Source of the DNA: a virus
Length of the DNA stretch: 37,499 bases
Reading direction: 5' to 3' (one strand)
Virus record (IMG/VR): IMGVR_UViG_3300045988_057146
Location: 1-37,499 of that record
The notes beneath the pieces are model-generated. The model searched no databases, was not told the DNA's origin, and worked only from the letters and a program-made list of their open reading frames with translations. A program made the position numbers and the translations under genes. Below, piece by piece: positions 1,861-36,993 of the stretch; within the stretch, counting starts at the first letter, position 1; every line of letters begins with the position of its first letter.

Positions 1861-2126
1861 TAATTTTTATCTAAATACGTTTCTTTTTCACTGTTTTTTC
1901 TTGGTGGTAAAACTGCGCTATACTTCTCTACTTCATCATACTTGTTCTTAATCCTTTTAATGATTCTATTTACACTAGAAACACTCATATTCAATCTGTC
2001 GGCTTGTTCTCTAACTGTCCATCCGTATATCCTTGTTCTTAGAATCATTTCTTCATCTTTAGTTAATAAAGCTAGATTAATAAACTCTTCTAAAATAATC
2101 TTATTCCAAGGTACTTGATTCGTCAT
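1860..2126 (-). CDS. Small sigma-70 region-4-like / HTH DNA-binding protein
   Basis: 88 aa. LTKDEEMILRTRIYGWTVREQADRLNMSVSSVNRIIKRIKNK resembles a region-4 HTH. It overlaps the holin 3' end by 26 nt. Confidence 0.5.
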   Translation of the reverse strand: MTNQVPWNKIILEEFINLALLTKDEEMILRTRIYGWTVREQADRLNMSVSSVNRIIKRIKNKYDEVEKYSAVLPPRKNSEKETYLDKN

Positions 2127-2601
2127 CGTCTTCGTTAATGATTTTATCTGCTACTTCTAATCCTTTAGTTAATACATTAGGAACGCTATATCCACATTGT
2201 ACAAGGTTCTCAATAATGCTACGCACTTCATTAATACACAAAGAAGCCAATACGAACCAACCTAATAATGTGGTTACATGAAAATCAATTCCTAGCATTT
2301 TTCCAATCTCTACCAAGAATGCACTGAACGTGAACGCAACCACAATCATAATCCAATAGCCTAGCTTTTTTAGAACTCCAATCCATCCTTTATTGCTATT
2401 GATTTTATGATTAATCGCCGACTTCATACATCCCGTAACGTAATCCACTACATTCATAAATAAGAAGAATGCAAATAAATACCAATGTTCGCCTAATACG
2501 TATGTTAATACGGCAACGGCTACACCACCCATTGCATTCATCTTGTCTAGAAAATACATACTTCTTGTTATTTGTTTAAATCCTCCATTGTTCTTTTCTA
2601 T
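2101..2601 (-). CDS. Holin (phage_holin_4_1 / TcdE-like family)
   Basis: Multiple TM helices and the motif NVVDYVTGCMKS...KGWIGVLKKLGYW...NEVRSIIENL. The ORF-track GTG (2610) lies inside the AAGGAG SD. An ATA at 2601-2599 sits 8 nt after the SD and is used here as the start. Confidence 0.8.
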   Translation of the reverse strand: MEKNNGGFKQITRSMYFLDKMNAMGGVAVAVLTYVLGEHWYLFAFFLFMNVVDYVTGCMKSAINHKINSNKGWIGVLKKLGYWIMIVVAFTFSAFLVEIGKMLGIDFHVTTLLGWFVLASLCINEVRSIIENLVQCGYSVPNVLTKGLEVADKIINEDDDESSTLE

Positions 2602-3628: not shown

Positions 3629-4498
3629 CTATAAACCTAAATACCTTTCATTGTAATAAACCGTACAAGCTAGGTTCGTATCTCCATTGTCTGCCGTGTA
3701 TCCTATGATATTCTCGCCTAACTGAATCGTCATATCATTGAATGATGAAGTTCTGTCAACTTTTCCAATACAATTCACACCATTCTTTTTGATTGAAATA
3801 GGCTCAGAAACTAAATCAATTTCTAATACATCACCATTGTGTAGCGTATCTAATACACGAATATATTTATCTTTATTAAAGAGTTTCGGATTTGTTACAT
3901 CTCCAAACGCTTCAATAACGGCTCTGCAATATGTTTCTGTATCGCCTTGATTATCAATATAAATTTCTCTAGCGAATGTAAATGTTCCAAAGTTCACGCC
4001 TGTTTCCGGTATTTCAAAATTAAACGCTAAACCTCCACCAATTTCTGCAATATTCCTTGCGAAATCATCAAATGAAAGCAATAAAGGTTGTGTGCATAGA
4101 ATTGTAAAGTTAAGCTCTAATTCTTTGTAGATGTTAGCAGTTGGTAAGCTATACGCATATAATCTACCTCTGCAATATTTCTTTTCCCCCATATACTCAA
4201 CGATAACATCAAATAAATGAGAATATTGGAAGAAGCGCCGTAGCTTCTCCCTTTCTTCTCTTTTTTCTTCTAGTGAACCTTTAAAGATAGTTTTCACACT
4301 TCTTTCTTTCGTTGGAATACGTGAACCGATTAATCTAGCGCCATTTCCAAATGCATTGTCTTGTGTCGTGTATGAAGGCGCTACATAATCAAATCCATCT
4401 AGTCCATCACTAGATGGTATTCTCCATCTTTTGTTATCAATTTCAAATTCTTTGCCATCATCCCTTCGGACGATAACTCTTACTTTATTGATGTCTAT
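3629..4498 (-). CDS. Distal tail protein (Dit, Sipho_tail-like)
   Basis: The frame is open from 4552 with no ATG/GTG/TTG before 4297. The upstream 67 codons (IDINKVRVIVRRDDGKEFEIDNKRWRIPSSDGLDGF...) look like a genuine Dit N-terminus. ATA 4498-4496 overlaps the tape-measure TAG stop and lies 9 nt after GGAGG. Confidence 0.75.
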   Translation of the reverse strand: MDINKVRVIVRRDDGKEFEIDNKRWRIPSSDGLDGFDYVAPSYTTQDNAFGNGARLIGSRIPTKERSVKTIFKGSLEEKREEREKLRRFFQYSHLFDVIVEYMGEKKYCRGRLYAYSLPTANIYKELELNFTILCTQPLLLSFDDFARNIAEIGGGLAFNFEIPETGVNFGTFTFAREIYIDNQGDTETYCRAVIEAFGDVTNPKLFNKDKYIRVLDTLHNGDVLEIDLVSEPISIKKNGVNCIGKVDRTSSFNDMTIQLGENIIGYTADNGDTNLACTVYYNERYLGL

Positions 4499-7074
4499 TG
4501 AATTACACCTCCATATCCATATCTTGCTTGCATTCTTAACATTCGAGCAATTTCATCCGGACTTTGAACTTTATTGTAGAAGTTGATTGTCTGTCCGTTG
4601 TTATTCGTTGTAACGCTAGGCATAATTTGGGCCATGTCTTTCGCTACGGCACGAATCCACGCTTTATTTCTTTCTAATGGCACGACTGCTTCTGCTCCAT
4701 TACCTTCCAACAAACCAATTTGACCGCGTTTCAATACACCACCACGTTCTAGTTTTGGAATCTTTCCAATGCTAACTCCGGGAATCTTATTGATGATACT
4801 GATTGCACCGTTAATGCCACCGATAACACCATTTACCATTCCTTTTACACTTCCAACTAATGAACTTACTGCTCCTTCAATTCCATTGAATACACCACCT
4901 ACAAATCCTTTTAAACCGCTCCATGCATTCTGTATTCCATGTAGAACATTTGAAACCTTATTTCCTACCTTATCCATCACGATTCTTATTTTTGACCACA
5001 CATCGTCAAATACATTTGAAATAGTATCTTTTACACCTGCGAAGCTAGAATCAATTATATCAATCACATTTTGTACAATATTTCCAACATTATCGAATAC
5101 ACCTTTGATAACATTCCATATGTTTTCAAATACGCTTGAAATTGACTGAAATAAACCACTTACAAATTGAATGATTGCAGATACTACTTCACTTATCTTG
5201 CTCCAAATATTTGTCGCAATAGTTACGATTAAAGACCAAATATTAGATATGATAGATGCAATGATTTGAACAATTGGCATGACAATAGACAATATTGTAG
5301 AAATTGCACTTCCAATATATGAAATTACCATACTAATAAACGAAATGATTCCACTTACAACACTTCCAACTATCGAAAGAATAGATGTGATTACAGGAAT
5401 TAATCCAACTATATTTGAAATCACCATCTTTATAATAGCTAGGATAGGTGGGCCTACTACGCTAAGAATTTTTTGAGCTTGGTTAACAATATTTTGAATT
5501 GCGTTACCGATTTTTCTTAGAATTTCTTTTGCGATAGGTTCAAGTGCAACTTTCATTTGCTCAATCGCTTTTTTTACTTCATCAAATGCAGGCTTTAAAA
5601 CTTTGGAAACTTGGTTAACGATATTTGTGATTCCACTTGTATCAATGCTACCAAATACACTTGAAATAACTTCACCAACTTTAGCAAACCCTTGTTGAAT
5701 ACCTTGTATAGCTAATGTAATTAATACAATGATACCGGAAAGAATAGGAGTAATAAGTTCGCCTATTGGAGTAAATGAATCAAGAAATGCACGCCCTAAG
5801 CCACTTAATGCGTTCTTTAAGCCACCATTTGCAATAGCTTTAACCTTATCCATTGTTCCGGCTACATTGTTATATTCATCACCTACAGATGATAAAGATG
5901 TAATAAACTTAAGGTTGAAATCTTCTCCCATTGTACCAAAAGCAATACTTGCTTTATTTAATGCTTCTTGTTGATTTGTTGTTTCCTTAATATCTTGGAC
6001 AATTGCGTCTTGCACATCTTTTTGTGTTGCGCCACCTTCTTTATATGCCTTAAAAACTTCTTTTGTCTTATCATTGAAACTATCTAACGCTCCTTCAATA
6101 GTTCCGTCTGACATTCGTGTAGTGATTTCATTTACTGCGTCTTGCATTTTATCAAGGTTATAAGAACCACCTTTTACACCATTTGTCATAGCTTGGAAAT
6201 ATTCTTTTGCCGAATATCCTGCTTGAGCAAATTTACCGGCATATTCTGCGATATTATCACCTAATTCTCCGGAATAATCTAAACCATTTTGTGCTCCTTT
6301 AGCCATAAGGTCGAAAGCTTCTTTAGAACTAATTCCAAACTGTTCCATTAATTGCTTTGCACCTCTTAATGTTTCGTTCTCGTCCATTCCATAAACGTCT
6401 CTTAATGTAATCAAATCCTCAGTAACATTCTTTAAATCAACATCACTTATTCCTTGCATTTGTTGCTTGACTCTGCCCATCATATCGGCTACATCTGAAA
6501 CATTTTCGCCAAAATTATTAGACCAAACATCACGAGCGATGTCTTTAAATTTATTCATTTCACCACTTGAAGCACCTGTTTGAGCTTGGAATTTAGCCAT
6601 AGCGTCATCTAATTCAGTAGCTTGGTTAACACCTGCCTTAATTGCTAATGCCATACCACCGATAGCTCCTGCTACGGCAGTAACGCCTACAACACCTCCC
6701 ACGCCTAATTCTGTTAGGGCATCAGTGATTGCAGTAGCTTCCGGACTGATATTCTGAATCTTTCCTAATAGTCCATCAAATCCACCTTGAATTGATTCTA
6801 AGGCACTGTTTCCGATTTGTTTAAATACATCAAACTTTGAACCTGTTTCTTGCGTTTCTGCTTGTGTATTCTTTTGCTCTTCGTTTAAATCTTTAAGTTT
6901 ATCTTTAATCTTTGGTGGTGCTTTTGAACCTTCAGAACCTAGCTTATCAATTGCTTTTGAAGTATCTTTGATAGCGTTTGTGGCTTCACTTGATACAACT
7001 TTTACCGATTTAATACCATTCTCAAGACCACTTGTATCAATTTTCGTCTCAAACTTTAATGTTCCGTCCGATAT
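4495..7074 (-). CDS. Tail tape measure protein
   Basis: Long helical and hydrophobic repeat protein in the canonical position. The frame is open up to the TGA at 7077-7075. The upstream 124 codons begin (ATA)SDGTLKFETKIDTSG, a typical tape-measure N-terminus. GGAGGTGG lies upstream. Confidence 0.85.
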   Translation of the reverse strand: MSDGTLKFETKIDTSGLENGIKSVKVVSSEATNAIKDTSKAIDKLGSEGSKAPPKIKDKLKDLNEEQKNTQAETQETGSKFDVFKQIGNSALESIQGGFDGLLGKIQNISPEATAITDALTELGVGGVVGVTAVAGAIGGMALAIKAGVNQATELDDAMAKFQAQTGASSGEMNKFKDIARDVWSNNFGENVSDVADMMGRVKQQMQGISDVDLKNVTEDLITLRDVYGMDENETLRGAKQLMEQFGISSKEAFDLMAKGAQNGLDYSGELGDNIAEYAGKFAQAGYSAKEYFQAMTNGVKGGSYNLDKMQDAVNEITTRMSDGTIEGALDSFNDKTKEVFKAYKEGGATQKDVQDAIVQDIKETTNQQEALNKASIAFGTMGEDFNLKFITSLSSVGDEYNNVAGTMDKVKAIANGGLKNALSGLGRAFLDSFTPIGELITPILSGIIVLITLAIQGIQQGFAKVGEVISSVFGSIDTSGITNIVNQVSKVLKPAFDEVKKAIEQMKVALEPIAKEILRKIGNAIQNIVNQAQKILSVVGPPILAIIKMVISNIVGLIPVITSILSIVGSVVSGIISFISMVISYIGSAISTILSIVMPIVQIIASIISNIWSLIVTIATNIWSKISEVVSAIIQFVSGLFQSISSVFENIWNVIKGVFDNVGNIVQNVIDIIDSSFAGVKDTISNVFDDVWSKIRIVMDKVGNKVSNVLHGIQNAWSGLKGFVGGVFNGIEGAVSSLVGSVKGMVNGVIGGINGAISIINKIPGVSIGKIPKLERGGVLKRGQIGLLEGNGAEAVVPLERNKAWIRAVAKDMAQIMPSVTTNNNGQTINFYNKVQSPDEIARMLRMQARYGYGGVIQ

Positions 7075-7658: not shown

Positions 7659-8017
7659 TTATTTTCCGTAACCTTTGAAACTGCATTGCTTGCATCAATT
7701 AAGCTTTTGATTGCTTTATCGTTCATTAATGTTCTAGCTTTCTTCATTGCTTGTTCGTTTGTTCTTCTTGAATATTCTTCATCAATTAAATTCACAATAT
7801 ATAACACTTCCATTAAATCTACTTGTTCAATATCTACGCTACCTAACATGCTTTCAATCTGTTCATCTGTTAATACTGTTTTCAGATAGTCGAATTTAGC
7901 TCGATATGCTTCTTCATGTGTAGCATGAAATGCGTTACAAGTGTCCTCTGCTTTTAATACTTCAATTGTTTTGGGTGGGATTTCATACTGCTTTCCTTCA
8001 TACGTGATTCTATTCAT
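7655..8017 (-). CDS. Tail assembly chaperone
   Basis: 120-aa acidic protein between the major tail and tape-measure genes. AGAGG lies 6 nt before the ATG. Confidence 0.6.
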   Translation of the reverse strand: MNRITYEGKQYEIPPKTIEVLKAEDTCNAFHATHEEAYRAKFDYLKTVLTDEQIESMLGSVDIEQVDLMEVLYIVNLIDEEYSRRTNEQAMKKARTLMNDKAIKSLIDASNAVSKVTENK

Positions 8018-8035: not shown

Positions 8036-8542
8036 TTATACTTCTGATGTGCCTTCTGTAAATGTTACTTCTCCATCCGCTACCTTTGCAGTACCGACAC
8101 GAATATCACTTGCAAAGTTAATATTGAAGTTGATTTTTGAATCGACACCGCTCAACGTGTCAAAGATTAATTTAGCGTCAACTTCCCACGCCTTATATCC
8201 TTTTGTTTTGTCTCCATCAAACATAAATACAAGTAATGCCTTTGTATTTACTTCTTCGTTGTTTGGCACGGATTTCATCATTTTTTCGTAAATATATTCA
8301 AAATCATCTTCACCTTTAATCATTGTTAAATCTTGCGAAATCTGAGGTGAATAACTCTTTAACGATTCAGTTGGGTTCTTATCTGCGATAAAGTCATATG
8401 TTTCAGTTTCGCTATTAAATGCAATATCTAAAGTTGTAGACTTTTTAATTCGTTTGTAAGCTTCTCCCATTTGTAAGAACAATCCAATCATATACTTCTT
8501 GACTGTCTGTCCTGTATTAACTTCAGTTCCTGTAGTTGTTAT
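8036..8542 (-). CDS. Major tail protein
   Basis: The position and size fit. The frame is open 17 codons upstream of the ATG at 8491, back to a TAA. ATA 8542-8540 lies 8 nt after AAAGGAG. Confidence 0.65.
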   Translation of the reverse strand: MTTTGTEVNTGQTVKKYMIGLFLQMGEAYKRIKKSTTLDIAFNSETETYDFIADKNPTESLKSYSPQISQDLTMIKGEDDFEYIYEKMMKSVPNNEEVNTKALLVFMFDGDKTKGYKAWEVDAKLIFDTLSGVDSKINFNINFASDIRVGTAKVADGEVTFTEGTSEV

Positions 8543-10100: not shown

Positions 10101-10250
10101 CTATTTTTTCTTTTTATCTTGAGGTTTAGCTTCCTCTTTTTCTTCTGTGGGTTCTTCTTTTACTTCTTCATCAACTTTAGGTTCTTCAGCTTTTGGTTGT
10201 TCAACCTCTTTAGTGATAGAAGGATAACCCCATCCAATTTCCGTTGCCAT
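10101..10250 (-). CDS. Small charged ORF (49 aa) after the capsid gene
   Basis: TAATG overlap with the capsid stop. Translation MATEIGWGYPSITKEVEQPKAEEPKVDEE...KKKK. It is below the ORF-track length cutoff and the SD is weak. Confidence 0.3.
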   Translation of the reverse strand: MATEIGWGYPSITKEVEQPKAEEPKVDEEVKEEPTEEKEEAKPQDKKKK

Positions 10251-11119
10251 TACTTTGCACTAGCAGATAAGTAGATACCTGCTACCTTATTGGCGTATAC
10301 ATCAACGATTCCATACTTACGATATTTCAATACATCTGAATCCGATTCAATGTTATTGCTTGCCGGAATTACATTTGAAACAGTATGTTTATCCCATTTC
10401 ATGACGGAAGGTTTGTGAACAATCAAAAAGTTGATTACGTGTCCATCCTCTGCCTTCTTATATCCACCGTCTAACTCTGTATCTTTTCCACTCAACAATT
10501 TAATTTTCGTATAGAAGCGTGTTGAAGGTACAGGAACAACCTTTGCGAATCCTTGTAAAGCTTCACGAGATTTGTAAGTGTCCAACGCCTTAACACTATT
10601 TAATAAAGTAGGTGTTGAATATAAAATACGTTGTTCACTAGGTACTTCATCTTCATCCATTTTAGTAGTGGCTTTTAATAATGCGCTCAAGAATGTTTCT
10701 GCATCTGCGAAATCTTCGGCAACTGTTGTGATTCCTTCTGTTCCTGCAATTTTAGCGAATGTGTAAGCGTCTGCTTCCGGTGCTACCTTTGTACGCATAA
10801 GTTCCGCTCCTGCTCTACCGAACGCAATATTCATTGATTCCGCATTATCTTGAGTATCAACTGCAATCTTTGTTCCTCTATCATAGTCGAATGTAGCAGT
10901 TTTCCACTCTAATGTCACTGCGTTAGATGTATAACCACTATTTCTATCATAGTCTCCTAAACCTTTGACGGAAATTTGTGGATAGATGATTTCTTTTGCG
11001 TTTGCTCCTGCTCGTACCATTGTAGCGTCTGCGTTCAAATCACCTGTAACTGAAGCTAACTTATATACCTCATCCAAATTTGAGACATACGTTTTAGCTA
11101 ATGCAATTTGATTTGCTAT
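10250..11119 (-). CDS. Major capsid protein
   Basis: Follows the scaffold gene. The frame is open 14 codons upstream of the TTG at 11077, back to a TAA. (ATA)ANQIALAKTYVSNLDEVYK looks like the native N-terminus. ATA 11119-11117 lies 9 nt after AGGAGG. Confidence 0.8.
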   Translation of the reverse strand: MANQIALAKTYVSNLDEVYKLASVTGDLNADATMVRAGANAKEIIYPQISVKGLGDYDRNSGYTSNAVTLEWKTATFDYDRGTKIAVDTQDNAESMNIAFGRAGAELMRTKVAPEADAYTFAKIAGTEGITTVAEDFADAETFLSALLKATTKMDEDEVPSEQRILYSTPTLLNSVKALDTYKSREALQGFAKVVPVPSTRFYTKIKLLSGKDTELDGGYKKAEDGHVINFLIVHKPSVMKWDKHTVSNVIPASNNIESDSDVLKYRKYGIVDVYANKVAGIYLSASAK

Positions 11120-13528: not shown

Positions 13529-14455
13529 TTAATAGATTTCTGCATCGAGTTTAACGACTGTAAAATCACTATTACTTGCTATGATTCGTCCAAATTGTAC
13601 GGGTTGTGAGCCAAACGAACCCCTAAAGGATATTACATCATCATATCCTTGACTTTGTACTATCTTATCAAGAGTTATATTTACCGCCTTTGCATTGTTT
13701 ACATTTGATTCTGTAAAGTTCCAAAACTTTATGGATGATTTGTTCAGACTTAATGTTGGTTTTGTTCTCATTTCAATATGGGGAACATAAATATAAGCGT
13801 CATTCATTCCCGCAACTATCAAGCTAGAATCCTTTAATTCTATTTTCGTATAATAATACTCACATTTTTTTAATTCTTCTGCGTAGATTGGTGCGACATA
13901 AGTTGTTGCTTTGCTTCCTTTCTCTAATTTAATCCATTCAATCGTGATTGATGCGCCTTGCTTCAATTCGATACTTGCTTCTTTTAATGAAGATAAAGTT
14001 ACGGCATTTAAACCTTTTACAATCTTTTTTCCATTTGTTTGATTGTATAAATATGCGTTTCCTGTCACTGCCGTAATATTGCACGATAATGTACACGTGT
14101 CATTGATTGCGTGTTCTAAGATTTGTTTAAACCACGAGCTAGTATCGGTAGTGGCTAATGAGGTGATGGTGACCGTACCATCAATATTGTATACTACCTT
14201 AGCATTAATGCTCATCCATCTATCTAATGTATACGTTGGCTTCGTAGTATTGTTCGTATACGTTCCATATCCTCTTTGGTCCACTCTGAAATTAGAGTTA
14301 AGCAATAAATTTGGATTACTGAATCTTTCTGCAATGTAATCCGTTAGTTGCGACAATGTACCTTTTTTCAAGCCTGCTCCGTTATGAACAGGCAATAGAC
14401 TAGTGTCGGTAAAGCTAGGCAATGCGTCTAGCTCTGTTACTTGTTTTCCTGCCAT
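13529..14455 (-). CDS. Tail fibre / receptor-binding protein
   Basis: N-terminal LP...LLPV...KKGTLSQLTDYI and NLLLNSNFRVDQRG...YTLDRW motifs are typical of Firmicute phage fibres. AAGGAGGA lies 7 nt before the ATG. Confidence 0.6.
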   Translation of the reverse strand: MAGKQVTELDALPSFTDTSLLPVHNGAGLKKGTLSQLTDYIAERFSNPNLLLNSNFRVDQRGYGTYTNNTTKPTYTLDRWMSINAKVVYNIDGTVTITSLATTDTSSWFKQILEHAINDTCTLSCNITAVTGNAYLYNQTNGKKIVKGLNAVTLSSLKEASIELKQGASITIEWIKLEKGSKATTYVAPIYAEELKKCEYYYTKIELKDSSLIVAGMNDAYIYVPHIEMRTKPTLSLNKSSIKFWNFTESNVNNAKAVNITLDKIVQSQGYDDVISFRGSFGSQPVQFGRIIASNSDFTVVKLDAEIY

Positions 14456-14707: not shown

Positions 14708-15316
14708 CTAACCCCACATTGTGTCTAACTCGTTTGTTGTAATCGCAGTTAATTCTGATTTCTTAACATATGCCGTTAAATCAATGTCTGTATTACCAAT
14801 CTTTTCAAATGTTTTGGATTCTGAAATCCAAATATATTCATCATAAATATCTTGCGTTCCATGTGAATGCGCAATCAAATAAATCACACCATTAGAGCCT
14901 GTAGCAGGTAAGCTCGTTACCTTTTCATATCTAATAGACGTGATGCTTCCTACTGCCGAATTGATTAACGATTGAACTTCGGCTTTCGTCTGATAGCCTT
15001 TTCCTGCAATCAGTGTATTTACTTGCGATTCGTTCCGAAATCCACTATCATTTGTTAATTGCGATACCTTTGTTGGAACTGAAATGGCAACGGCTTTTGA
15101 ACTTGGTTCAATTTTTGTTCCGTTAACACTCACTGACTCAATCACGTTTACTTGAGCACCACTTGCAATACCACTTAATTTGCTTTTTTCTGCGCTTGTG
15201 TAGTCATTTGTCGATAAGCCTTTACCACTTACCACATCAACTTTTCCACTTAATGCAGTTTTAATTTTACTGATTAATAGAGTCAATCCACTCTTATCTA
15301 AATATTCAATAGCCAT
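14708..15316 (-). CDS. Fibre-like structural protein
   Basis: Start trimmed to the ATG at 15316, 8 nt after AAGGAGG. Contains the motif GKGLSTNDYTSAEKSKLSGI. Confidence 0.6.
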   Translation of the reverse strand: MAIEYLDKSGLTLLISKIKTALSGKVDVVSGKGLSTNDYTSAEKSKLSGIASGAQVNVIESVSVNGTKIEPSSKAVAISVPTKVSQLTNDSGFRNESQVNTLIAGKGYQTKAEVQSLINSAVGSITSIRYEKVTSLPATGSNGVIYLIAHSHGTQDIYDEYIWISESKTFEKIGNTDIDLTAYVKKSELTAITTNELDTMWG

Positions 15317-15629: not shown

Positions 15630-15925
15630 GTAATCACTTCCTTATTCAATACTCTATATACTTTTGTTGTTTTGATAGGAGAAGCAATAGCAACTCCTCC
15701 TTTTGTAATCATTCTTAATTGAATGTTACAAGTACCTTCTTTAAAGGTGAGCGTTTCTTCTTGGCTTAATAACACTGAAATAACATTTCCTTCAATATCT
15801 AAATCACTTGATTCTTTTTTCAAGATATATCCGTTCTGTTCAAATACAACATAGATATTCTGCATTTCATTTAAATTAATATCGTTTATTGTGATTTGAA
15901 TTGTTGGTGTTGTTCCTTGTCTCAT
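15626..15925 (-). CDS. Small beta-rich (Ig-like?) structural protein
   Basis: ATGA overlap with the upstream gene. 99 aa. The Ig-like call is tentative. Confidence 0.45.
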   Translation of the reverse strand: MRQGTTPTIQITINDINLNEMQNIYVVFEQNGYILKKESSDLDIEGNVISVLLSQEETLTFKEGTCNIQLRMITKGGVAIASPIKTTKVYRVLNKEVIT

Positions 15926-16731
15926 GATTTCACCTTATAAGTCCAATCTGTACCGACTTCACCTTCATCAACTTCATACGCCCAATCGGCTAGAATCTCT
16001 TGTCCGTTCTCGTCTACAAGCGTTCCGTCATCTGATAAAAGAATCGTAGTGAAATGGTTGTTCATAAGCATTTGCTCAACATTTGCGATTCGATTCATCA
16101 ACTTACCTGCCGTATTTGAATCCAATGTATCTTTTACACTCGCAAACCATTCATTGAATTCATTCTCGTTTGCTTTCATTTCAGATTGATTCTGTTCTTT
16201 TACTTCTTTGAATAATTCGGTCATTTGTGTGAATAAGTCTAATGTTTCAACACTCTTGATAGCATTTGTAACTGCCCCACAACGTGTAGAATCTAGCCTT
16301 GTATCAGTAATATTTGAGCCTTTGATTTCACTTGCATTTCCTTCTACTGTAACCGTAGCCAATACTAAATCATAAATAGAATCACTTCTCGTAATTCCAT
16401 TGTTGATGTCGCTTGATAATAAGACAATGTTTCTGTAAGCATCATTATCATTCAATCTAAGAATGATGTTGTAGCTTTTAGTAGCAGTATTCTTTTCTAG
16501 TGTGATGGCTTCGTCATCTTTCTGCCAATAGAATGCTCCATTGATATTTGCTCTTCCTGCTTTAACTGTTAATGTTAAACCTTGAGCCTTCTCAACTCTT
16601 AAATGGTCAGAACTAGAATCATCTATGAATACACCATTTGTAAAATAACTTGAGAACAACCTTCTAAAAGCGTCATATAGTACTAATCTATCACCATTTC
16701 TTGAGACGAACGGAAAATATGTAGTTGCTAT
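15922..16731 (-). CDS. Phage structural (fibre-module) protein, 269 aa
   Basis: The frame is open 24 codons upstream of the TTG at 16659. (ATA)ATTYFPFVSRNGDRLVLYDAFRRLFSSYFTNGVF looks like the native N-terminus. ATA 16731-16729 overlaps the portal TAG stop and has GAGGAGGA upstream. Confidence 0.6.
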   Translation of the reverse strand: MATTYFPFVSRNGDRLVLYDAFRRLFSSYFTNGVFIDDSSSDHLRVEKAQGLTLTVKAGRANINGAFYWQKDDEAITLEKNTATKSYNIILRLNDNDAYRNIVLLSSDINNGITRSDSIYDLVLATVTVEGNASEIKGSNITDTRLDSTRCGAVTNAIKSVETLDLFTQMTELFKEVKEQNQSEMKANENEFNEWFASVKDTLDSNTAGKLMNRIANVEQMLMNNHFTTILLSDDGTLVDENGQEILADWAYEVDEGEVGTDWTYKVKS

Positions 16732-18131
16732 TCTTCTTCATCCTCCTCTCCATCATCTTGAATTTCTTCATTTAATAACTCAGTTGCTTCTTCTTCAGTA
16801 AAGCCATATTGCTTCATGAAATACATAATCTTTAATCTTGGAATATCAAATGTTAGTGCGTCATTTCTTAACGCTTGTGCCGTGCTTTGTTTATCCTCGA
16901 TATATGTATCGTCATAATCAATCGCAATGTCTAATGAATTGATATTAAGCTTTCTACCTTGTGTTAATTCATAGAAGTATGCTATTGCTTGAATAATATC
17001 TTGAATATATGCAGTAGATTCTTTACGTTGTGAATTTACTTCCTTCATTGCGTCTTGATTCTCACCGATATATTCTGTTGCCGTTACAATTCTTCCGCTT
17101 TCAAATGTGTATTTCTTTGTGCCGAATCCAAACATCATTGATAAGATACTTAATGCAGTTTCTAGCGATTGAACAACTTCCGCCGTCCTTACCGTTGGAT
17201 TATATTCCTGCCATAAGGCTTTTTCTTCCGGTAATTTGTCTCTACCTAACTGAACAAATATCTTTTTCATTTGTGGATTCATCTTAATCTTTCCATTCTC
17301 GTCTTTTTGCATTAATGCTTCATTTACAAGAACGATTTTATCCGATTTCAATAAATCTCGATTCCACATTGTCATTGTTAAATCAATCGTTTTTAGTGGA
17401 GCAATTGCACTCCAAATCTTTGGTAAGCCGTACCCTTGCATTTGTAAGTTGTTGACCTTTGCATTTCTCATAATTGCAAAAGGCTTAACCACATCTAATT
17501 GAACAATCTGTGCACGGTCTTTTATTTCTTCGCCTGTATCTTTAAAGTAATGTGTTTCTGCAATATATCTTTCGTCTTGTCCTTTTAAGAACATAACCAT
17601 CACATATACTTTTTTCAGTTTCTCGTAATTTACTCCAACGAATGCTACTTCCACAATTTCATCATTGATAACAGTTAATGGAAGGATATTCATTGAATCA
17701 CAATAGTTGATTCTAATTTCTCCTCCACTGAATGTACCATCTTCATAAATCTCGGCATTAGATACTGTCACATAAGCTCCTACAGTACCATTTGCAGACA
17801 TTTGCTCAACTTGTTTCCTATACATTACATCAAACCTATTCTTCGTTAGAATGTCTGAAATAATGTCATTTGTAGTACTGTCCTCTGTTGCGTTTATATC
17901 TAGGATTTCAATTAGGTTTGCGTCATCCTCGCATAAACGTTTCGCAAAGTCTGTTTTATCCAATGTGTATTCCTCATTGTTCAAGGTGTATGCCGTATGA
18001 AATTCTGTTTCGGTATTTGTGTACCATTTGTTGCACAATTCAATAATTTCAATTGCGTTTGTATCTACATAATACCCTCTATCGTTTAGGTAATTCTGAA
18101 ACCACGGTCTACGTGTGTTAGATGTTTCTAT
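16728..18131 (-). CDS. Portal protein (SPP1 gp6-like)
   Basis: Immediately follows terL. The frame is open 31 codons upstream of the TTG at 18038. ATA 18131-18129 lies 6 nt after GGAGG, and the terL stop falls in between. Confidence 0.85.
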   Translation of the reverse strand: METSNTRRPWFQNYLNDRGYYVDTNAIEIIELCNKWYTNTETEFHTAYTLNNEEYTLDKTDFAKRLCEDDANLIEILDINATEDSTTNDIISDILTKNRFDVMYRKQVEQMSANGTVGAYVTVSNAEIYEDGTFSGGEIRINYCDSMNILPLTVINDEIVEVAFVGVNYEKLKKVYVMVMFLKGQDERYIAETHYFKDTGEEIKDRAQIVQLDVVKPFAIMRNAKVNNLQMQGYGLPKIWSAIAPLKTIDLTMTMWNRDLLKSDKIVLVNEALMQKDENGKIKMNPQMKKIFVQLGRDKLPEEKALWQEYNPTVRTAEVVQSLETALSILSMMFGFGTKKYTFESGRIVTATEYIGENQDAMKEVNSQRKESTAYIQDIIQAIAYFYELTQGRKLNINSLDIAIDYDDTYIEDKQSTAQALRNDALTFDIPRLKIMYFMKQYGFTEEEATELLNEEIQDDGEEDEEE

Positions 18132-19953: not shown

Positions 19954-21261
19954 CTAGACGTGTCTTGCTTCTTCTGTTTCAAGTTCTGTAATCTCCTCTG
20001 TTCTTTTTAAGAATGTTACTGAATTATCATATTCGTAAACGATGTCATTATTTTCATCAAATCCTACAGGCTTTAGAACCTTTTCAAAAATCTTGTAAGG
20101 TGATTGTCCTGCTTTTGGTGAATTCCATAAATAATGCAAATAATCCTTCATTGTCATTCCTGCATATTTCGCCCTAGCTTCTGACGTATTTGTATTGAAG
20201 CCAATCGCTTTGTTACGCTCAAAATCTAAGAAGTACATATCCTTTTCAATATCTTTCCAATGTACTCTTCCATGTTTCTTTGCAATTTGTAAAGCTCCAC
20301 TAAAATTTCCTCTTGAGTAATCCCAATTCTTATCTAATGCACAACAACAACAGTTATTCGAGCATTCTTTAAAGTGTGCGTCTGATACATAGAATCTCAT
20401 GCCTAATTCATCACATAGTTCTTTCATCTTTTGAATGTATTTAGCCTTTACTTTTCTGTTAAGTCTTAAATATCCACTTCCATTTGAATGTTTTCTATAA
20501 AAATCTACAATATCAAATCCTGCACATTCACTAATCACATCATAATGCTCCTTAGCTTGCTTAATAGAGCGCATTTCTAAGCAAAAGAACTCTGTAGTAA
20601 CCGCAGTAGCTCCTGCCTTTTTGGCTTCTCTAATTAAATCTAGGTAGGTTTTATCTGATACTCCTACAATAAATGGACGCAACCTTAAAGTTGCACCACC
20701 TTTTGATAATTCAGTGTATTTTTTCATTGCTTCAAGTCTTTTCCTTGGACTTGGTACACCTACTTCGATTTTTCTTGCGTCCTCTTCATCTAGTGTGATG
20801 ATACTAAACTTAACATTCCAATTATCTGCGCCTTTGAACAATTCTTGATATTTAGGGTCGTTAAATACCCATGCCGATTTCGTACTAAAACAGATAGGAT
20901 AGTTAATAGATTTCAAATACTTGAGCATTTCATAGGTTTTACCATATTTCTTTTCATATCCGTCGAATTGGTCTGATAAACCACCATATTGAATAGGACG
21001 TCTGTCTTTAATGTATTTATAGAATTGTGATTTTGTATCTTCTCCACTGAAAATCTTTTTGCATTTCTCAACATTGATACATTTCACATCTTTATTAAGA
21101 TATGCTTCTTTACTTGCACCAATACCTCTTTGATATTGGCTAAAACAATAAACACATCCAAATGAACAGTTGGAATATGTGTCAAATGTTACCGGTAATG
21201 AGCAATCTGCGATTTCTCCTGTCCATCTTGGTGATAAATATGTCTCACTGATTTTATTCAC
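19954..21261 (-). CDS. Radical SAM enzyme (SplB / COG1533-like)
   Basis: CSFGCVYC CxxxCxxC cluster near the N-terminus and a second Cys cluster, CSNNCCCC. The GTG start lies 6 nt after GGAGGA. Confidence 0.75.
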   Translation of the reverse strand: MNKISETYLSPRWTGEIADCSLPVTFDTYSNCSFGCVYCFSQYQRGIGASKEAYLNKDVKCINVEKCKKIFSGEDTKSQFYKYIKDRRPIQYGGLSDQFDGYEKKYGKTYEMLKYLKSINYPICFSTKSAWVFNDPKYQELFKGADNWNVKFSIITLDEEDARKIEVGVPSPRKRLEAMKKYTELSKGGATLRLRPFIVGVSDKTYLDLIREAKKAGATAVTTEFFCLEMRSIKQAKEHYDVISECAGFDIVDFYRKHSNGSGYLRLNRKVKAKYIQKMKELCDELGMRFYVSDAHFKECSNNCCCCALDKNWDYSRGNFSGALQIAKKHGRVHWKDIEKDMYFLDFERNKAIGFNTNTSEARAKYAGMTMKDYLHYLWNSPKAGQSPYKIFEKVLKPVGFDENNDIVYEYDNSVTFLKRTEEITELETEEARHV

Positions 21262-21262
21262 C

Positions 21263-22030
21263 TTATATCCTCCATTTTCTTTTAATAATTAAGTTATTTC
21301 CTCTAATTGTTACCATGTCATCATATTTTCTTTTCAATAAATTTAGATATTGCTTTTGTATGTTTGTGGTTTTATATATTTCATAATATCCGCCTTTTTC
21401 TTTTCCCATTCTTGCTTTATTTGCAATAATGGTATTATTGCGTGCTATAATCTCTCCTTGTCTTATCAATCTAAGACATAGTTCATAGTCATCTAAAATT
21501 TTCATTTTTTCATCATATACAATCTTGTTATTTTTTATAATGAAATTGAATCCACCTTGCAAAAGTGTGTTATACGAATATTTTTCACCTGTCCTATTTA
21601 GCTTTGAAATGTTCATTTTATTGTCGATTGATATTACACCCGCATAATTAATTCCGTTTTTCTGCATAAAATCAAATATCTTTTTAACTTCACGCTCAAA
21701 CTTATTTGTCAAATTTATTAAACGTCCACATTTAGTTTCTGAACATTCATACCATTTTTGAAAGGGCCTTATATCATCATCTAACAATAGTATTTTTGAA
21801 CCATTTTCAAATTGATTTAGACATGTATTCCTATTGAATGATACATACATACCTTCTCTTAAAATGATTCTCGCTCGGCTTCCTAAATTCTGCCTGTAAG
21901 CTTTATAATCATTTGAATCATTTAAACATACAACAATTCTTTCATCTTCAATCCCACATTCTTTTAGTGCGTGATATGTTTTACATTTTGGTCTATGATA
22001 ACTTGCTATTGCATAATAGATGTTATTCAT
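21263..22030 (-). CDS. GT-A-fold glycosyltransferase-like protein
   Basis: N-terminal beta-strand IASYHRP and an acidic LLLDDDI motif suggest a DxD glycosyltransferase. It is translationally coupled to both neighbours. The fold call is tentative. Confidence 0.4.
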   Translation of the reverse strand: MNNIYYAIASYHRPKCKTYHALKECGIEDERIVVCLNDSNDYKAYRQNLGSRARIILREGMYVSFNRNTCLNQFENGSKILLLDDDIRPFQKWYECSETKCGRLINLTNKFEREVKKIFDFMQKNGINYAGVISIDNKMNISKLNRTGEKYSYNTLLQGGFNFIIKNNKIVYDEKMKILDDYELCLRLIRQGEIIARNNTIIANKARMGKEKGGYYEIYKTTNIQKQYLNLLKRKYDDMVTIRGNNLIIKRKWRI

Positions 22031-22604
22031 GCATTAATTCCTTGATGTCGTAGCACACTTTTAATTCAGTTACCTGTAAAAGTTTCTCTAAGAATAGTTG
22101 TTCTTCCTCTGTTTCATATGTAATGATTACACGTTGCTTTTTTAGCATTTCTTCTGAATGTTCGCTAAATGCGTCCATAAGCTCATTATCATATCCTTCC
22201 GCTTCCATATCCTCAGTTAATGCACTAATTTCAAAATCGCCGAATCCGAAATCTCTCATGTCGATTCCGTCAATTTCTTCAAGCTCTTCCATTTCTGTTT
22301 TTAATGCGTCTAAATCCCATGAAGCTTTTTCTGCCGTTTTATTATCTGCAATTCTAAACGCTTTTACTTGCTCATCTGTTAAATCATCTGCAACCACGCA
22401 AGGAACAGTTTCTAAGCCTAATTCTTGACTAGCTTTATATCGTGTATGACCTGCAACAATCACTCCATTTTTATCAATAACAATAGGCACTTTGAAGCCG
22501 AACTCCTCAATAGAATTTTTAACAAATTTCACTGCTCCATCATTGATTCTAGGGTTATTCTCATAAGGCTTTAGCTCATTTAATCTTTTTTCAACAATGT
22601 TCAT
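22023..22604 (-). CDS. ParB-like nuclease (ParB N-terminal) domain protein
   Basis: LKPYENNPRINDGAVKFVKNSIEEFGFKVPIVIDKNGVIVAGHTRYKA is a classic ParB/Srx motif. A strong SD is present. Confidence 0.8.
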   Translation of the reverse strand: MNIVEKRLNELKPYENNPRINDGAVKFVKNSIEEFGFKVPIVIDKNGVIVAGHTRYKASQELGLETVPCVVADDLTDEQVKAFRIADNKTAEKASWDLDALKTEMEELEEIDGIDMRDFGFGDFEISALTEDMEAEGYDNELMDAFSEHSEEMLKKQRVIITYETEEEQLFLEKLLQVTELKVCYDIKELMHE

Positions 22605-22621: not shown

Positions 22622-22648
22622 TTAAAAGAACCGAGACAAACGCTCGGT
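22622..22648 (-). terminator. Terminator-like hairpin between the tRNA-like gene and the late operon
   Basis: ACCGAG/CTCGGT stem with a 7-nt loop, followed by TCTTTTA on the minus strand. It lies about 15 nt before the ParB SD. Confidence 0.5.
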
Positions 22649-22728
22649 AATATAAAAGCCTAATTGTATGCCATTGTTGGTATTTAATATCTAATTTGGG
22701 AAGGACTTACTGATAGGCTTTGTAATCA

Positions 22729-22804
22729 TGGTTGCAGGAGAAGGATTTGCACCGTTCGACCTCTAGCTAATAAGACTAGTGAGCTACTACTGCTCTATCC
22801 TGCT
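22729..22804 (-). tRNA. Non-canonical tRNA-like gene, anticodon UAU (reads AUA)
   Basis: Hand-folded 76-nt cloverleaf. Acceptor AGCAGGA/TCCTGCA has 6 bp plus an A1xA72 mismatch. U8 is present. D stem is GAGC/GCTC (A11:U24). Anticodon stem is CTAGT/GCTAG with loop CTTATTA, giving anticodon TAT at 22772-22770. T arm is GAA(C)GG-TGCAAAT-CCTTC. A73 and an encoded CCA follow. Odd features are a bulged C in the T stem, G55, a D loop without GG, and U37. Confidence 0.6.
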
Positions 22805-22821
22805 AACACAATTATTACATG

Positions 22822-22844
22822 AAAAAATGCTCACATTGTGAGCA
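22822..22844 (-). terminator. Rho-independent terminator overlapping the 3' end of the regulator gene (hairpin copy 2)
   Basis: TGCTCAC/GTGAGCA stem followed by T6 on the minus strand. It contains GCTCACATTGTGAGC. Confidence 0.6.
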
Positions 22845-26666: not shown

Positions 26667-27407
26667 CTACGCTCCAAATAGTTGTGCTCTAAGCCTATTA
26701 AATTCATCTTGGACTTCTTTATCTGTCTTTGTGTTCTGCTCTGCATAAAACTTTGAATCAAGTGTGATAGGCTTATCTTTATTTCTTTTGGTCCATTCAT
26801 CATGTACCCATTTTTGAATCACTAGTGAATGGTTTTTGTATTTTTTTCCACTCGTTTCAATATATTCATCTAATATCTTTATATGCTCATCTAATGAATC
26901 ACCATATAAATCTAATAGGTGTGTGTGTTCTTTATCTGTAAGTAACACGTGTGAATATTCTCCATATTTATGTTTACTTTGTTTATTAGTATTTAATTTA
27001 TTAGTATTTGGTTTATTAGTATCTTTATAAGTGTAGGGGTTTTCAAGTACTTGAGTTTCAACACCTTGCTTTTCAATACCTTGATTTTCAAGGGGTTGAA
27101 AATCCACCTCTTGAGGATTCTCAAAGAATGTATATTGATATTGAATTCTATTGCTATTTGCGTTCGGATATATCTTCTCTACTCTTAAATATCCATTCTT
27201 TTTTAATTCCTTAATTGCACTTTCAACTGAATCTTTCCCATCTTTTACAATTCCAACTAATCCATTTACTGTATAATGCCATTCTTCCGGTAAACCAAGA
27301 ACAACACTTAACAAGCCTATTGCTTTAAGTGATAAGCGTTTATCTTTTAAATGTGTATTGCTCATCACTGTATAGTTTCTGTTCTTAATAACTCTAATTA
27401 CTGCTAT
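26667..27407 (-). CDS. Replication initiator / replisome organiser (winged-helix N-terminus, DnaD-like C-terminus)
   Basis: NYTVMSNTHLKDKRLSLKAIGLLSVVL... is an N-terminal wHTH, and the gene contains internal iterons. The TTG at 27422 lacks an SD. ATA 27407-27405 lies 8 nt after GGAGG. Confidence 0.6.
   Translation of the reverse strand: MAVIRVIKNRNYTVMSNTHLKDKRLSLKAIGLLSVVLGLPEEWHYTVNGLVGIVKDGKDSVESAIKELKKNGYLRVEKIYPNANSNRIQYQYTFFENPQEVDFQPLENQGIEKQGVETQVLENPYTYKDTNKPNTNKLNTNKQSKHKYGEYSHVLLTDKEHTHLLDLYGDSLDEHIKILDEYIETSGKKYKNHSLVIQKWVHDEWTKRNKDKPITLDSKFYAEQNTKTDKEVQDEFNRLRAQLFGA
26982..27099. repeat. Two sets of 15-bp-phased iterons (candidate origin) inside the initiator gene
   Basis: Three copies of TTTATTAGTAT(TT) at 26982, 26997 and 27012. 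Four copies of TTTTCAAnACCTTGA-like units at 27040, 27055, 27070 and 27085. Confidence 0.65.
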
Positions 27408-35268: not shown

Positions 35269-36993
35269 TTATTTAAATAGTTTCGACACCTTTTTTAATA
35301 ACTTTAAAATCAAAGTGATAATCCGATTGATTCCATCTACATTAATTTTATCTTTTTTTGAATCATTACTTGAATCATCTTTTTTAGAATTGCTCAACTC
35401 ATCCAAATATTGTGATACTAATGATTTAAAATCATCCCATCCCTCATCAAGAATCTTGTGTGGGCAATATTTATAATTACCACTTGTCATCTTGTAATCA
35501 TGGTGCTTTTTCAAGCAATCAATACTCAATCCATATTTATACAATAATTCAGATGCAAGTCTTGCTCCATTCTCTCTAGCTTTTTTCCATTCATCTTGTG
35601 AATCGTTATCATTATCCTTGGCGATTTCGATTTGGATACCTGTTCTATTACCAAGTCCATATGCTCCATCACCTGTTGCAAATGCATTACGATTCAATGG
35701 TAATGATTCGATGATGTCTTTATCATCCACCGAGAAATGCCATGATTTATATTCCTTCGAATTATGCAATGCATTATTTAAAGCTCTAGCAGTTCCATTT
35801 GGTGTAGCCGAGTTATGAATGATGATTGCTTGAGGTTTATTCATCAAATAAGGGCATTTGTACGGATACAAGCTCTTATCAATTAAATCAACTGTAACTC
35901 CATCATGATTATAAACTTCATCTTTTACATCGTGACCTTCATATTCTCCTTTATTGACTGAACTAAATCCATTTGTATTTTCTGTTGGTGTAGGCGTTGG
36001 CTTAACTTCTTCTTTTTTTTCTTCTTCCGGTGAAGTAAATGTTGCCCACATTTGACTTCTATCTTCGGTTGCTGAAACTGCTAAGAATACTTTTCTTGAA
36101 CCATCTTTATACACAATATATCTGTGCCCATTGCCCACATATTTCCAGTAATAACGAATTGAATCACCAGTGTTGTATGTCTTACATACTGTGCCAGTTG
36201 GAGAATCATAACGCGCTCTCACGCCGTCTACAGTAAATGTAGCAATGCCATCTTCTTGTGTTAATGTAATAGATTCAACAGGTTTTTGTTCTTCGATAGC
36301 ACTAAAGTCTGCCCATGGTTCAGTACCAGCTTCATTACCATTTACTGCAACGAAATAACGATAGCTTGCACCATCCGCTTGATGTTCAACCCAACTAATA
36401 TATCTATGGCCGTTACCAACCCATTTTTGGGTATATTCTAATTTTCTGCCACTTTTCAATGTTTCAACCGCCAAACCTGTAGGTGTATCTCTTCGCTTTT
36501 GAATATCATATTTAAGCGTAGCATAAGCGTGCTCATCTATTAGTTTAGATTCGCTATAATCGCTATTTTGAGCTTGATTTACGAAACATTTAGGTCTAAA
36601 TGCAGTATCAAAGGTAGCACTGTATGGAAGTTTACATAAATTAAATGCCCCATTTACTCCACCTTGGTTCTGCCCTAAGAACCAACCGTATCCACCACTT
36701 GCGTCGTGGTCGAAAATTGCAATGTGCGAGTATGGAGTCCATCCTGCTACTTCTCTAAATACTGCAATATCACCAGGTTGCATAACAGTGACTTCATTAC
36801 AATAATTTAAGATTCCATTTGTTTTTCGATTGTTCCAAATGTCTTTTGCATAACCGCTTGTAGTACAGTGAATTGCTTTATATCCTAAATCAATCATGTA
36901 CTTCATAGTTCCATCCCAACACTGAGCACCATAATATCCGTCAATGTCGAATGCTTTGCCTAATACGGCTTTTTTAAAATCTTGATAATTTAT
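35269..36993 (-). CDS. Endolysin: CHAP, two SH3b-like repeats and an Amidase_2 (PGRP) domain
   Basis: The CHAP catalytic motif GAQCWDG lies upstream of the first ATG (36906). The frame is open back to a TAA, and ATA 36993-36991 lies 9 nt after AAGGAGGA. NGHRYI(S/V) repeats appear twice. The amidase motifs are IIIHNSAT...GIQIEIA...YCPHK. Confidence 0.85.
   Translation of the reverse strand: MNYQDFKKAVLGKAFDIDGYYGAQCWDGTMKYMIDLGYKAIHCTTSGYAKDIWNNRKTNGILNYCNEVTVMQPGDIAVFREVAGWTPYSHIAIFDHDASGGYGWFLGQNQGGVNGAFNLCKLPYSATFDTAFRPKCFVNQAQNSDYSESKLIDEHAYATLKYDIQKRRDTPTGLAVETLKSGRKLEYTQKWVGNGHRYISWVEHQADGASYRYFVAVNGNEAGTEPWADFSAIEEQKPVESITLTQEDGIATFTVDGVRARYDSPTGTVCKTYNTGDSIRYYWKYVGNGHRYIVYKDGSRKVFLAVSATEDRSQMWATFTSPEEEKKEEVKPTPTPTENTNGFSSVNKGEYEGHDVKDEVYNHDGVTVDLIDKSLYPYKCPYLMNKPQAIIIHNSATPNGTARALNNALHNSKEYKSWHFSVDDKDIIESLPLNRNAFATGDGAYGLGNRTGIQIEIAKDNDNDSQDEWKKARENGARLASELLYKYGLSIDCLKKHHDYKMTSGNYKYCPHKILDEGWDDFKSLVSQYLDELSNSKKDDSSNDSKKDKINVDGINRIITLILKLLKKVSKLFK

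Follow-up and report, generated by a model that had tools for sequence, protein, structure and literature searches.

The window analyzed here, namely the whole 37,499-nt stretch of IMG/VR virus record IMGVR_UViG_3300045988_057146 (positions 1 to 37,499), was a ~37.5-kb temperate siphophage genome with 33% G+C; its gene set comprised 62 genes, nearly all on the minus strand, with open reading frames (ORFs) intact under code 11. A transfer RNA (tRNA) gene of initiator type, with anticodon UAU and an encoded CCA, was found at 22729..22804 (-) on the basis of Rfam RF00005 and family covariation. This gene was very probably, as judged by comparison with its relatives, a phage-borne derivative of the bacterial initiator tRNAfMet with its anticodon changed from CAU to UAU, and its product would initiate translation at the AUA codons of nine genes in the same genome.

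The 226-nt gap occupied by the tRNA gene was bounded on one side by the stop of a 108-aa gene and on the other by the first gene of the late block (encoding a ParB_N-domain protein, start 22604). The 108-aa gene upstream of the tRNA displayed a weak Sigma70_r4 match (E 0.009), which was the sole basis of its ArpU/RinA label. The two flanking terminator hairpins described in the original prediction were recovered (2 found vs. 0.4 expected in the scan): (i) a palindromic G+C-rich terminator-like hairpin at 22828..22844, which has T runs on either strand and immediately follows the 108-aa gene; and (ii) a terminator-like hairpin at 22630..22648 (-), between the tRNA and the ParB_N gene. The extended -10-like element placed just upstream of the tRNA was likewise present as TGTAATAAT at 22811..22819 (-), ending 6 nt before tRNA position 1, and it was kept clade-wide as TGnRATAAT (TGTAATAAT, TGCGATAAT, or TGCAATAAT); a consensus scan gave no -35/-10 pair at 22811..22819. 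TGTAATAAT was a putative promoter of the tRNA itself, with the transcript predicted to start at or near A1.

The minus-strand sequence of 22729-22804 was AGCAGGAUAGAGCAGUAGUAGCUCACUAGUCUUAUUAGCUAGAGGUCGAACGGUGCAAAUCCUUCUCCUGCAACCA. Rfam RF00005 matched 22732-22804 (-) over its full length (1-71) with 48.8 bits (gathering score 29, E 1.3e-07), CCA at 22729-22731 directly followed this match, and a covariance model built from the tRNA(UAU) family (see below) gave the window copy 98.9 bits. The cloverleaf contained an acceptor stem with an A1xA72 mismatch on top of six Watson-Crick pairs (including G2:C71 and C3:G70) and discriminator A73; a D stem G10:C25, A11:U24, G12:C23, and C13:G22 with D loop AGUAGUA, devoid of GG; an anticodon stem C27:G43, U28:A42, A29:U41, G30:C40, and U31.G39 with loop CUUAUUA, in which position 37 was U; and a T stem carrying one extra nucleotide with T loop UGCAAAU. 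Every initiator-like feature named in the original prediction (cloverleaf, UAU, 1:72 mismatch, A11:U24, A73, CCA, and loop CUUAUUA) was thus confirmed from the sequence, and the features that it had counted against an initiator, namely the lack of three G:C pairs in the anticodon stem, U37, the extra T-stem nucleotide, UGCAAAU, and the GG-less D loop, were also all correct for the window copy.

The tRNA(UAU) family was composed of 14 distinct sequences from Erysipelotrichaceae phages, collected by pattern scans of IMG/VR and of contigs encoding portal homologues. Compensatory double changes were observed in 13 of 20 stem pairs, and this covariation was reached by none of 500 shuffles; acceptor pairs 2-7, the D stem, and the anticodon stem were 100% paired across the family, and pairing fell to 37-53% when the stem partners were slid. 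Position 1:72 was unpaired in 14/14 sequences (AxA, GxA, or CxA), and G2:C71, C3:G70, A11:U24, G30:C40, loop CUUAUUA, A73, and CCA were invariant in 14/14, the anticodon loop and the 3′ end having been fixed in the search patterns; patterns with positions 37 and 72 freed recovered L144 as the only additional relative. The pair 29:41 was G:C in 4/14, and 31:39 was U.G in 13 and C:G in 1. Three relatives, L052, L037 (RF00005 score 56.5 bits), and L059 (53.6 bits), harbored a T arm of canonical form and a D loop with GG, and the oddities of the window copy therefore represented a tolerated, derived state. The conservation as a whole marks the window RNA as a real, selected, structured tRNA of initiator ancestry. 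The counter-features of the original prediction thus stood as facts of the window copy but largely dissolved as arguments, given the canonical arms of these three relatives, the presence of G29:C41 plus G30:C40 in 4/14 sequences, and the sufficiency of the middle pair in E. coli (PMC5389676).

As a side observation, the window clade, compared to L052, displayed a D-loop change of GG to AG (22787-22790 (-)) together with a T-loop change of UUC to UGC (22746-22752 (-)), i.e., G18 to A together with U55 to G, which are partners of a tertiary pair; its T stem had acquired one inserted nucleotide (C, U, or G).

The sequence comparison was also applied to bacterial tRNAs. The family shared 57-78% identity, and the window copy 65-69%, with the annotated initiator tRNAfMet of E. 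coli and with those of Listeria, Staphylococcus, and Enterococcus; the corresponding values for E. coli elongator Met, Ile1, and Ile2 were 45-56% and 49-51%; and the best BLAST matches among the annotated tRNAs of phage records and E. coli were all tRNA-Met. Positions 31, 34, 37, and 39 were the only ones at which the L042-type anticodon arm GCUCGUCGGUCUUAUUAGCCGAAGGUCG departed from the Firmicute initiator arm GCUCGUCGGGCUCAUAACCCGAAGGUCG, and its differences from tRNAfMet of Listeria, Staphylococcus, Enterococcus, and E. coli were confined to these same positions. Compared to bacterial tRNAfMet (E. coli metZWV/metY and Firmicute homologues), the window tRNA had the same scaffold, 1:72 mismatch, G2:C71, C3:G70, A11:U24, G30:C40, A73, and encoded CCA, the last being frequent in initiator genes (PMC5143459), but it contained UAU, U37, and U31.G39 instead of CAU, A37, and G31:C39. 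Unlike tRNAfMet, the family had A, G, or C at position 1, was encoded by phages, and was matched to ATA starts. All its members carried UAU rather than CAU, and the RNA, though derived from an initiator and similar to one, was thus not strictly a tRNAfMet, nor would it be a substrate of methionyl-tRNA synthetase (MetRS) by the usual rules.

Two sets of known initiator determinants were relevant to this comparison. The formylase determinant consists of the 1:72 mismatch with 2:71 and 3:70 (PMC5389676). In E. coli, the middle anticodon-stem pair G30:C40 alone can license an initiator, and au/GC/gu variants are natural (PMC5389676), which goes some way towards answering the objection raised from the missing three G:C pairs; the window copy had A:U, G:C, and U.G at these three pairs, its U31.G39 being Y:R and not R:Y as in the published variant.

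Nine of the 62 window genes displayed a strong Shine-Dalgarno (SD) sequence at normal spacing followed by ATA, with the frame opening right after the previous stop and no canonical start near the ATA. They encoded, all on the minus strand, (i) the portal protein (16728..18131; ATA 18131-18129 behind AAGGAGGT; phrog_533); (ii) a minor head protein (15922..16731; ATA 16731-16729; phrog_1220, residues 3-225 on profile 8-249; ATA in 32/32 haplotypes); (iii) the major capsid protein (10250..11119; ATA 11119-11117 behind AAGGAGG; phrog_422, residues 2-288 on profile 2-294); (iv) a major-tail-like protein (8036..8542; ATA 8542-8540, assigned by homologue alignment); (v) the tape measure protein (4495..7074; ATA 7074-7072 behind AAGGAGGT; phrog_58), whose next canonical start lay 372 nt downstream; (vi) the distal tail protein Dit (3629..4498; ATA 4498-4496, overlapping the tape measure stop as ATAG; phrog_33); (vii) a holin-like protein (2101..2601; ATA 2601-2599, 8 nt after AAGGAG; phrog_199 holin), for which a GTG at 2610 overlapped the SD; (viii) a CHAP plus amidase endolysin (35269..36993; ATA 36993-36991 behind AAGGAGG; phrog_291, residues 2-78 on profile 5-86); and (ix) a DnaD-like replication initiation protein of the early region (26667..27407; ATA 27407-27405 behind GGAGGTGA; phrog_11718, residues 2-98 on profile 2-99; ATA in 10/10 haplotypes).

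These starts were scored per gene together with homologue alignment, and overall counts of codons behind GGAG or at ORF heads, which are contaminated by codons adjoining true starts, were dropped. The ATA aligned codon for codon with the ATG of homologues and fell at PHROG profile position 1-2, as exemplified by the N-termini of tape measure proteins (I-SDGTLKFETKID and I-ADGTLIFETKLD vs. Met-initiated M-ADGTLLFETKLD), of the major tail protein (I-TTTGTEV vs. M-ATSGTEV), and of Dit (I-ISVTCRVVRDDGKEF vs. M-NAVTVEVIRDDGRRF). ATA at start positions was far beyond chance, and the claim that many genes of this genome begin with it held for these nine. Most late genes (terminase, scaffold, and connectors) kept an ATG start, the window contained 46 ATG starts and 277 internal ATG codons, and internal AUA was an ordinary Ile codon (168 codons, 15 per 1000, 20% of Ile codons).

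N-terminal truncation was systematic among the public proteins of these phages (P0001, P0003, and P0035), the portal having 436 or 365 aa, or 408 aa as annotated by PGAP in Amedibacillus, vs. 467 aa; portal cluster P0001 (436 aa; 1,406 sequences) was called from an internal TTG, and the PGAP Amedibacillus portal was short by ~60 residues. These truncations arose from the rejection of ATA starts by gene callers.

Co-occurrence was assessed in 80 loci surrounding portal homologues and in six further contigs, obtained by a protein search, that encode such homologues. Among ~70 related loci, every tRNA-bearing one had ATA at its portal, capsid, major tail, and tape measure starts. In the loci with the tRNA, 135 of 138 starts of portal, major capsid, major tail, tape measure, and Dit genes were ATA and three were ATG; in the assessable loci without the tRNA, 53 of 54 starts were ATG, the remaining one being a doubtful ATA call. 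The tRNA-positive lineages fell into six portal clusters (20% average divergence), the representatives of which were 54-68% identical, and L060 (62% identical to L059) and L061, with neither the tRNA nor any ATA start, were interleaved with these clusters; in related phages the tRNA and the ATA starts were thus either both present or both absent, the co-occurrence that the original prediction had proposed to look for. Start positions in the window clade were occupied by ATA or ATG and never by another codon. Three genes were polymorphic among clade haplotypes, namely major tail (28 ATA/1 ATG), the gene at 15316 (14 ATA/3 ATG), and the gene at 14455 (25 ATG/2 ATA), and the two codons thus interchanged at starts among near-identical genomes. 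Assemblies from IMG/VR, ENA, and Logan agreed on the ATA positions, as did the genome of an Amedibacillus isolate at NCBI (L036).

The endolysin gene had its own extended -10-like element, TGCTATAAT at 37027-37019 (-), ~25 nt ahead of the SD, and it was probably transcribed apart from the tail genes. As the first gene after its own promoter-like site, it has an ATA start that cannot be explained by translational coupling. Coupling as the cause of the ATA starts was ruled out by this position of the endolysin gene and by the occurrence of ATG at the same junctions in tRNA-less relatives.

In the proposed mechanism, the tRNA would be transcribed from its own promoter and would most likely be charged with isoleucine by the host isoleucyl-tRNA synthetase (IleRS), given that Ile/Met identity is set mainly by the anticodon; a UAU tRNA is a good substrate of B. 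subtilis IleRS (PMC3919564). Host Fmt would then formylate the charged tRNA via the 1:72 mismatch plus G2:C71 and C3:G70, initiation factor 2 (IF2) would deliver it to the SD-positioned AUA, with which its anticodon would pair perfectly, and passage to the 70S complex would depend on G30:C40. The retained initiator features would give it access to the P site at initiation and exclude it from elongation. Precedents exist for the central steps: tRNAfMet with an altered anticodon initiates at the matching codon (e.g., GAU at AUC), usually with a new amino acid (PMC3643588), and unmodified U34 binds strongly to AUA and weakly to AUG (PMC3919564). The host initiator alone would read AUA too poorly for virion quantities of capsid protein, native tRNAfMet in E. 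coli yielding 238 CAT units from AUA vs. 7314 from AUG, ~3% (PMC3643588).

The rival explanations differed in how they accounted for these observations. It was very improbable that the gene specifies an elongator tRNA-Ile(UAU) for the internal AUA codons, with ATA starts that are unrelated to it and served weakly by the host initiator. Elongator tRNAs are common in phages, genuine tRNA-Ile(UAU) genes were found in viral contigs L146, L167, L185, and L276, ARAGORN called the relatives with a canonical T arm tRNA-Ile(tat), and there were the 168 internal AUA codons to be served; however, AUA usage was unremarkable at 33% G+C, the scaffold was that of tRNAfMet and not of tRNA-Ile, and the limitation of ATA starts to tRNA-bearing loci, as well as bulk capsid and tail synthesis from a codon with ~3% of AUG activity, would be left unexplained. 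The genuine viral elongators (in L276, its second tRNA) had a paired 1:72, C11:G24, and A37 or G37, the E. coli elongators compared also having C11:G24, whereas the family had the 1:72 mismatch in 14/14, A11:U24, and U37. A Watson-Crick 1:72 pair is required for EF-Tu binding. Known tRNA-Ile(UAU) elongators (Mycoplasma mobile type, B. subtilis tilS suppressor, and phage copies) resemble the window tRNA in reading AUA with UAU and in probable charging by IleRS (PMC3919564), but they are distinguished by a paired 1:72, Y11:R24, and purine 37, none of which applies to the window family, and by EF-Tu delivery. Descent from tRNAfMet, the invariant determinants, the co-occurrence, and the ATA/ATG interchange all argue for the AUA-decoding initiator that the original prediction had put forward, over the elongator that it had named as the ordinary alternative.

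It was improbable that the gene chiefly specifies a counter-defence tRNA, whose altered initiator loop would escape a host VapC-like nuclease or toxin that cleaves tRNAfMet and for which the UAU/ATA pairing would be secondary or would keep key genes translatable once the host initiator is destroyed. Enteric VapC cuts tRNAfMet in the anticodon loop, and phage tRNAs have been reported to evade anticodon nucleases by loop mutations. The cellular initiators sampled had loop CUCAUAA, the family changes (31, 34, 37, and 39) clustered around the anticodon loop, related phages carried CAU initiator scaffolds with the odd loops UUCAUGC, CUCAUAC, and AUCAUGU, and many tRNAs in the viral scan (see below) had U37; against this, no defence gene or nuclease was identified, the late genes with ATG starts (terminase, scaffold, and connectors) would stay vulnerable, and the idea is compatible with AUA initiation, addressing why such a system exists and not how it works. 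The suggestion that the locus is a decaying pseudogene, or else an attachment or processing element resembling a tRNA, with ATA as a sequencing or assembly artefact (e.g., from modified DNA), could draw on the aberrant T arm and D loop of the window copy, its rejection by ARAGORN, and a neighboring ParB_N, TAGT, and radical SAM module suggestive of modified DNA (see below), but it was effectively refuted by the covariation, co-occurrence, and haplotype data: compensatory changes occurred in all four stems with key positions invariant, L052, L037, and L059 had fully canonical arms, ATA positions were identical across IMG/VR, ENA, Logan, and the Amedibacillus isolate, the 46 ATG starts and 277 internal ATG codons were unaffected, and two of the four differences from tRNAfMet (A37U and C39G) are impossible as C-to-T or G-to-A errors.

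Several points weigh against initiation at AUA by the window tRNA. The evidence was comparative throughout, and the number of independent events in evolution behind the co-occurrence was small (perhaps two to four), the portal tree being rough and phages mosaic. The window copy had only one of the three canonical initiator G:C pairs, besides its irregular T arm and GG-less D loop. Among the tRNA finders to which the original prediction had pointed, the Rfam model matched the locus and ARAGORN called no tRNA in the window, a false negative evidently caused by the irregular T arm with its extra T-stem nucleotide. When the window copy was folded by itself, the structure of minimum free energy was cloverleaf-like, with an unremarkable z of -0.87, which is uninformative, as usual for tRNAs. 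t6A37, on a purine 37, goes with ANN codons, and to our knowledge U37 is unprecedented in a tRNA that reads an A-starting codon; U37 also weakens IleRS recognition by E. coli rules, rendering the charged amino acid uncertain. It may be speculated that U37 prevents t6A modification and leaves the RNA unsuited to decoding in the A site. UAU initiator-scaffold tRNAs with A37 were found in unrelated phages (L144:915-990, L193, L194/L196, and L195; 40-64% G+C), some with a U1:A72 pair and some with a C1xU72 mismatch, and no ATA starts were evident in the fragments examined, the portal, protease, and capsid genes of L144 starting with ATG; such tRNAs may therefore sometimes serve another purpose. 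The ATA start of the early DnaD-like gene makes a pure late switch unlikely.

As for purpose, ATA starts in both lysis genes and in the genes of the main virion proteins hint that lethal or costly products are kept under lock. Such a private lock, by which these genes would be translated only when the phage tRNA is made, is a speculative reading and less likely than not. The variety of anticodon loops among the initiators of related phages points to evasion of a defence aimed at the initiator.

Initiator-scaffold tRNAs were not restricted to the tRNA(UAU) family. A search with the family covariance model revealed them in nearly all tRNA(UAU)-less relatives at another site, after the minor capsid gene (L062:7652-7725; L105-L141, ~3.7 kb downstream of the portal start; L125:8449-8525; and L122:13719-13793). 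Their anticodons were mostly CAU, with CCU in L122, L130, and L141 and CGC in L125, and the anticodon loops of these relatives varied (UUCAUGC, CUCAUAC, AUCAUGU, and CUCAUAA). L130 carried its CCU tRNA at L130:6392-6468, and its tape measure gene started at L130:11482 as AAGGAGGT..AGG-SDGSLLFDTKLD, vs. ATG in the CAU-carrying L062 (L062:12375) and L132 (L132:17326) of the same 20%-divergence portal cluster; the remaining starts compared were ATG, or GTG for the L130 terminase. In a further group (L201, L239, L264, L276, L305, and L312), the tRNA shared the window's acceptor stem (AGCAGGA/UCCUGCAA), A1xA72, U31.G39, and U37 but had anticodon CCU, and the portal, head protease, and major capsid genes began with SD plus AGG AAA (in L276, minus strand of the locus: tRNA at ~7844-7920 and gene starts at 10416, 11617, and 12366); these phages had, in addition, an ordinary elongator tRNA-Ile(UAU), in which position 37 is A and the ends are paired. 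The CCU tRNAs with AGG starts constitute an independent replicate of the UAU/ATA pairing.

A scan of IMG/VR for an initiator D arm plus U33 and U37 gave at least 120 viral loci (L197-L316). Among the matches listed, 70 passed the stem checks; the 1:72 mismatch was present in 66 of these, among them all whose anticodon was not CAU, and the anticodons on initiator scaffolds were CAU, GAC (at least 10 distinct sequences), AAC (at least four), CCU (at least five), CAG, UAC, GCU, and ACU. An SD-based search for cognate starts of the GAC, AAC, and UAC tRNAs gave nothing, but it does not apply to those phages, which have few SD-led genes. It is on balance likely that phages evolved a class of private start codons, in which initiator anticodons diversified (UAU; CCU in at least two other groups; CGC, GAC, AAC, UAC, CAG, GCU, and ACU) and matching codons replaced ATG at structural and lysis genes, as a natural orthogonal initiation system that gates or protects expression and is missed by gene callers.

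The UAU/ATA pairing was further compared with known systems. Engineered anticodon-mutant initiators likewise shift the start of translation to the codon matching their anticodon, in most cases along with a different first amino acid (PMC3643588); they are, however, laboratory constructs, while that of the window is natural, conserved across phage lineages, and accompanied by key genes that evolved the matching start. The window pairing involves UAU and ATA at nine starts, the unusual codon being a sense codon at the start position only, with no stop readthrough. Laboratory initiators reportedly include the amber tRNAfMet(CUA), GAU/GAC/GAA variants, and i-tRNA(AAC), used as orthogonal initiation systems. 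Gut phages (crAss-like and Lak) are said to reassign TAG or TGA with phage-encoded suppressor tRNAs, and this recoding has in common with the window system a phage tRNA that alters codon meaning, a codon that clusters in gut-phage genes for structure and lysis, a plausible timing role, and mis-annotation by standard gene callers; it acts at elongation or termination inside genes, whereas the window system would act at initiation, with a sense codon that is still Ile internally. In mitochondria, a single tRNAMet with f5C34 reportedly reads both AUG and AUA as Met, so that AUA likewise serves as a start, but the window has a separate dedicated tRNA with Watson-Crick UAU.

In the literature examined, the coverage of which was incomplete so that an earlier report is possible, engineered initiators and the recoding of stop codons were described, but not a non-AUG initiator tRNA naturally encoded by a phage; the UAU/ATA pairing has the appearance of a natural, hitherto undescribed private start codon, and the sister CCU/AGG systems may indicate a general phage strategy. 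If true, the window would provide the first natural example encountered in this analysis of a genome adapted to a dedicated non-AUG initiator tRNA, i.e., of a code altered at the initiation step; virion proteins would begin with (formyl-)isoleucine, and ATA reporters would be silent without the tRNA. The truncated public annotations of ATA-start proteins would be explained, and UAU/AUA and CCU/AGG would be evolution-tested orthogonal initiator/start pairs for synthetic biology. The system also raises the questions of how far an initiator needs the three-G:C rule and A37, what role U37 plays, and whether private starts act as a lock or as a means of surviving attacks on the host initiator.

With respect to hosts, the window integrase and ParB_N proteins shared 90% clusters with Holdemanella sp. 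proteins, the window itself being a Holdemanella-type prophage, and one tRNA-positive lineage (L036) was a prophage of Amedibacillus sp. YH-ame6 (NCBI isolate genome GCA_053848845.1), which together point to gut Erysipelotrichaceae (Holdemanella and Amedibacillus) as the hosts of tRNA(UAU) phages. Megablast of the tRNA locus against GenBank phages returned zero matches, i.e., no close annotated relative, and the sole match in a tRNA-pattern scan of genome contigs was a chance one in a Bdellovibrio metagenome-assembled genome (MAG).

The first genes past the tRNA (window 19954-22604 (-)) encoded the ParB_N-domain protein, a TAGT protein (TET-associated glycosyltransferase; E 9e-11), and, by a match that stayed below the Pfam cut-off (E 6e-4), a radical SAM-like protein, a combination that suggests a DNA hypermodification module. 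This module was not kept alongside the tRNA in other lineages, and a role of the radical SAM and TAGT proteins as dedicated tRNA modifiers was ruled out by their absence from L036, L037, and L059, all three of which carry the tRNA together with ATA starts.

Some minor observations concerned the flanks of the tRNA gene. The -10-like hexamer ended 5-6 nt ahead of the purine at position 1 in the window clade, L036, and L059, a spacing that hints at leaderless tRNA transcripts. In L037 (L037:6215-6242), L239, L279, and L144, a G+C-rich hairpin was followed by AAUAU/UAUAU abutting position 1 of the initiator-type tRNA. The ~80 nt between the tRNA and the downstream terminator (window 22649-22728 (-)) were conserved in the clade and contained the long-range complementary pair AAAGCCUA...UAGGCUUU; this stretch may represent a late promoter, a packaging site, or a processing signal.

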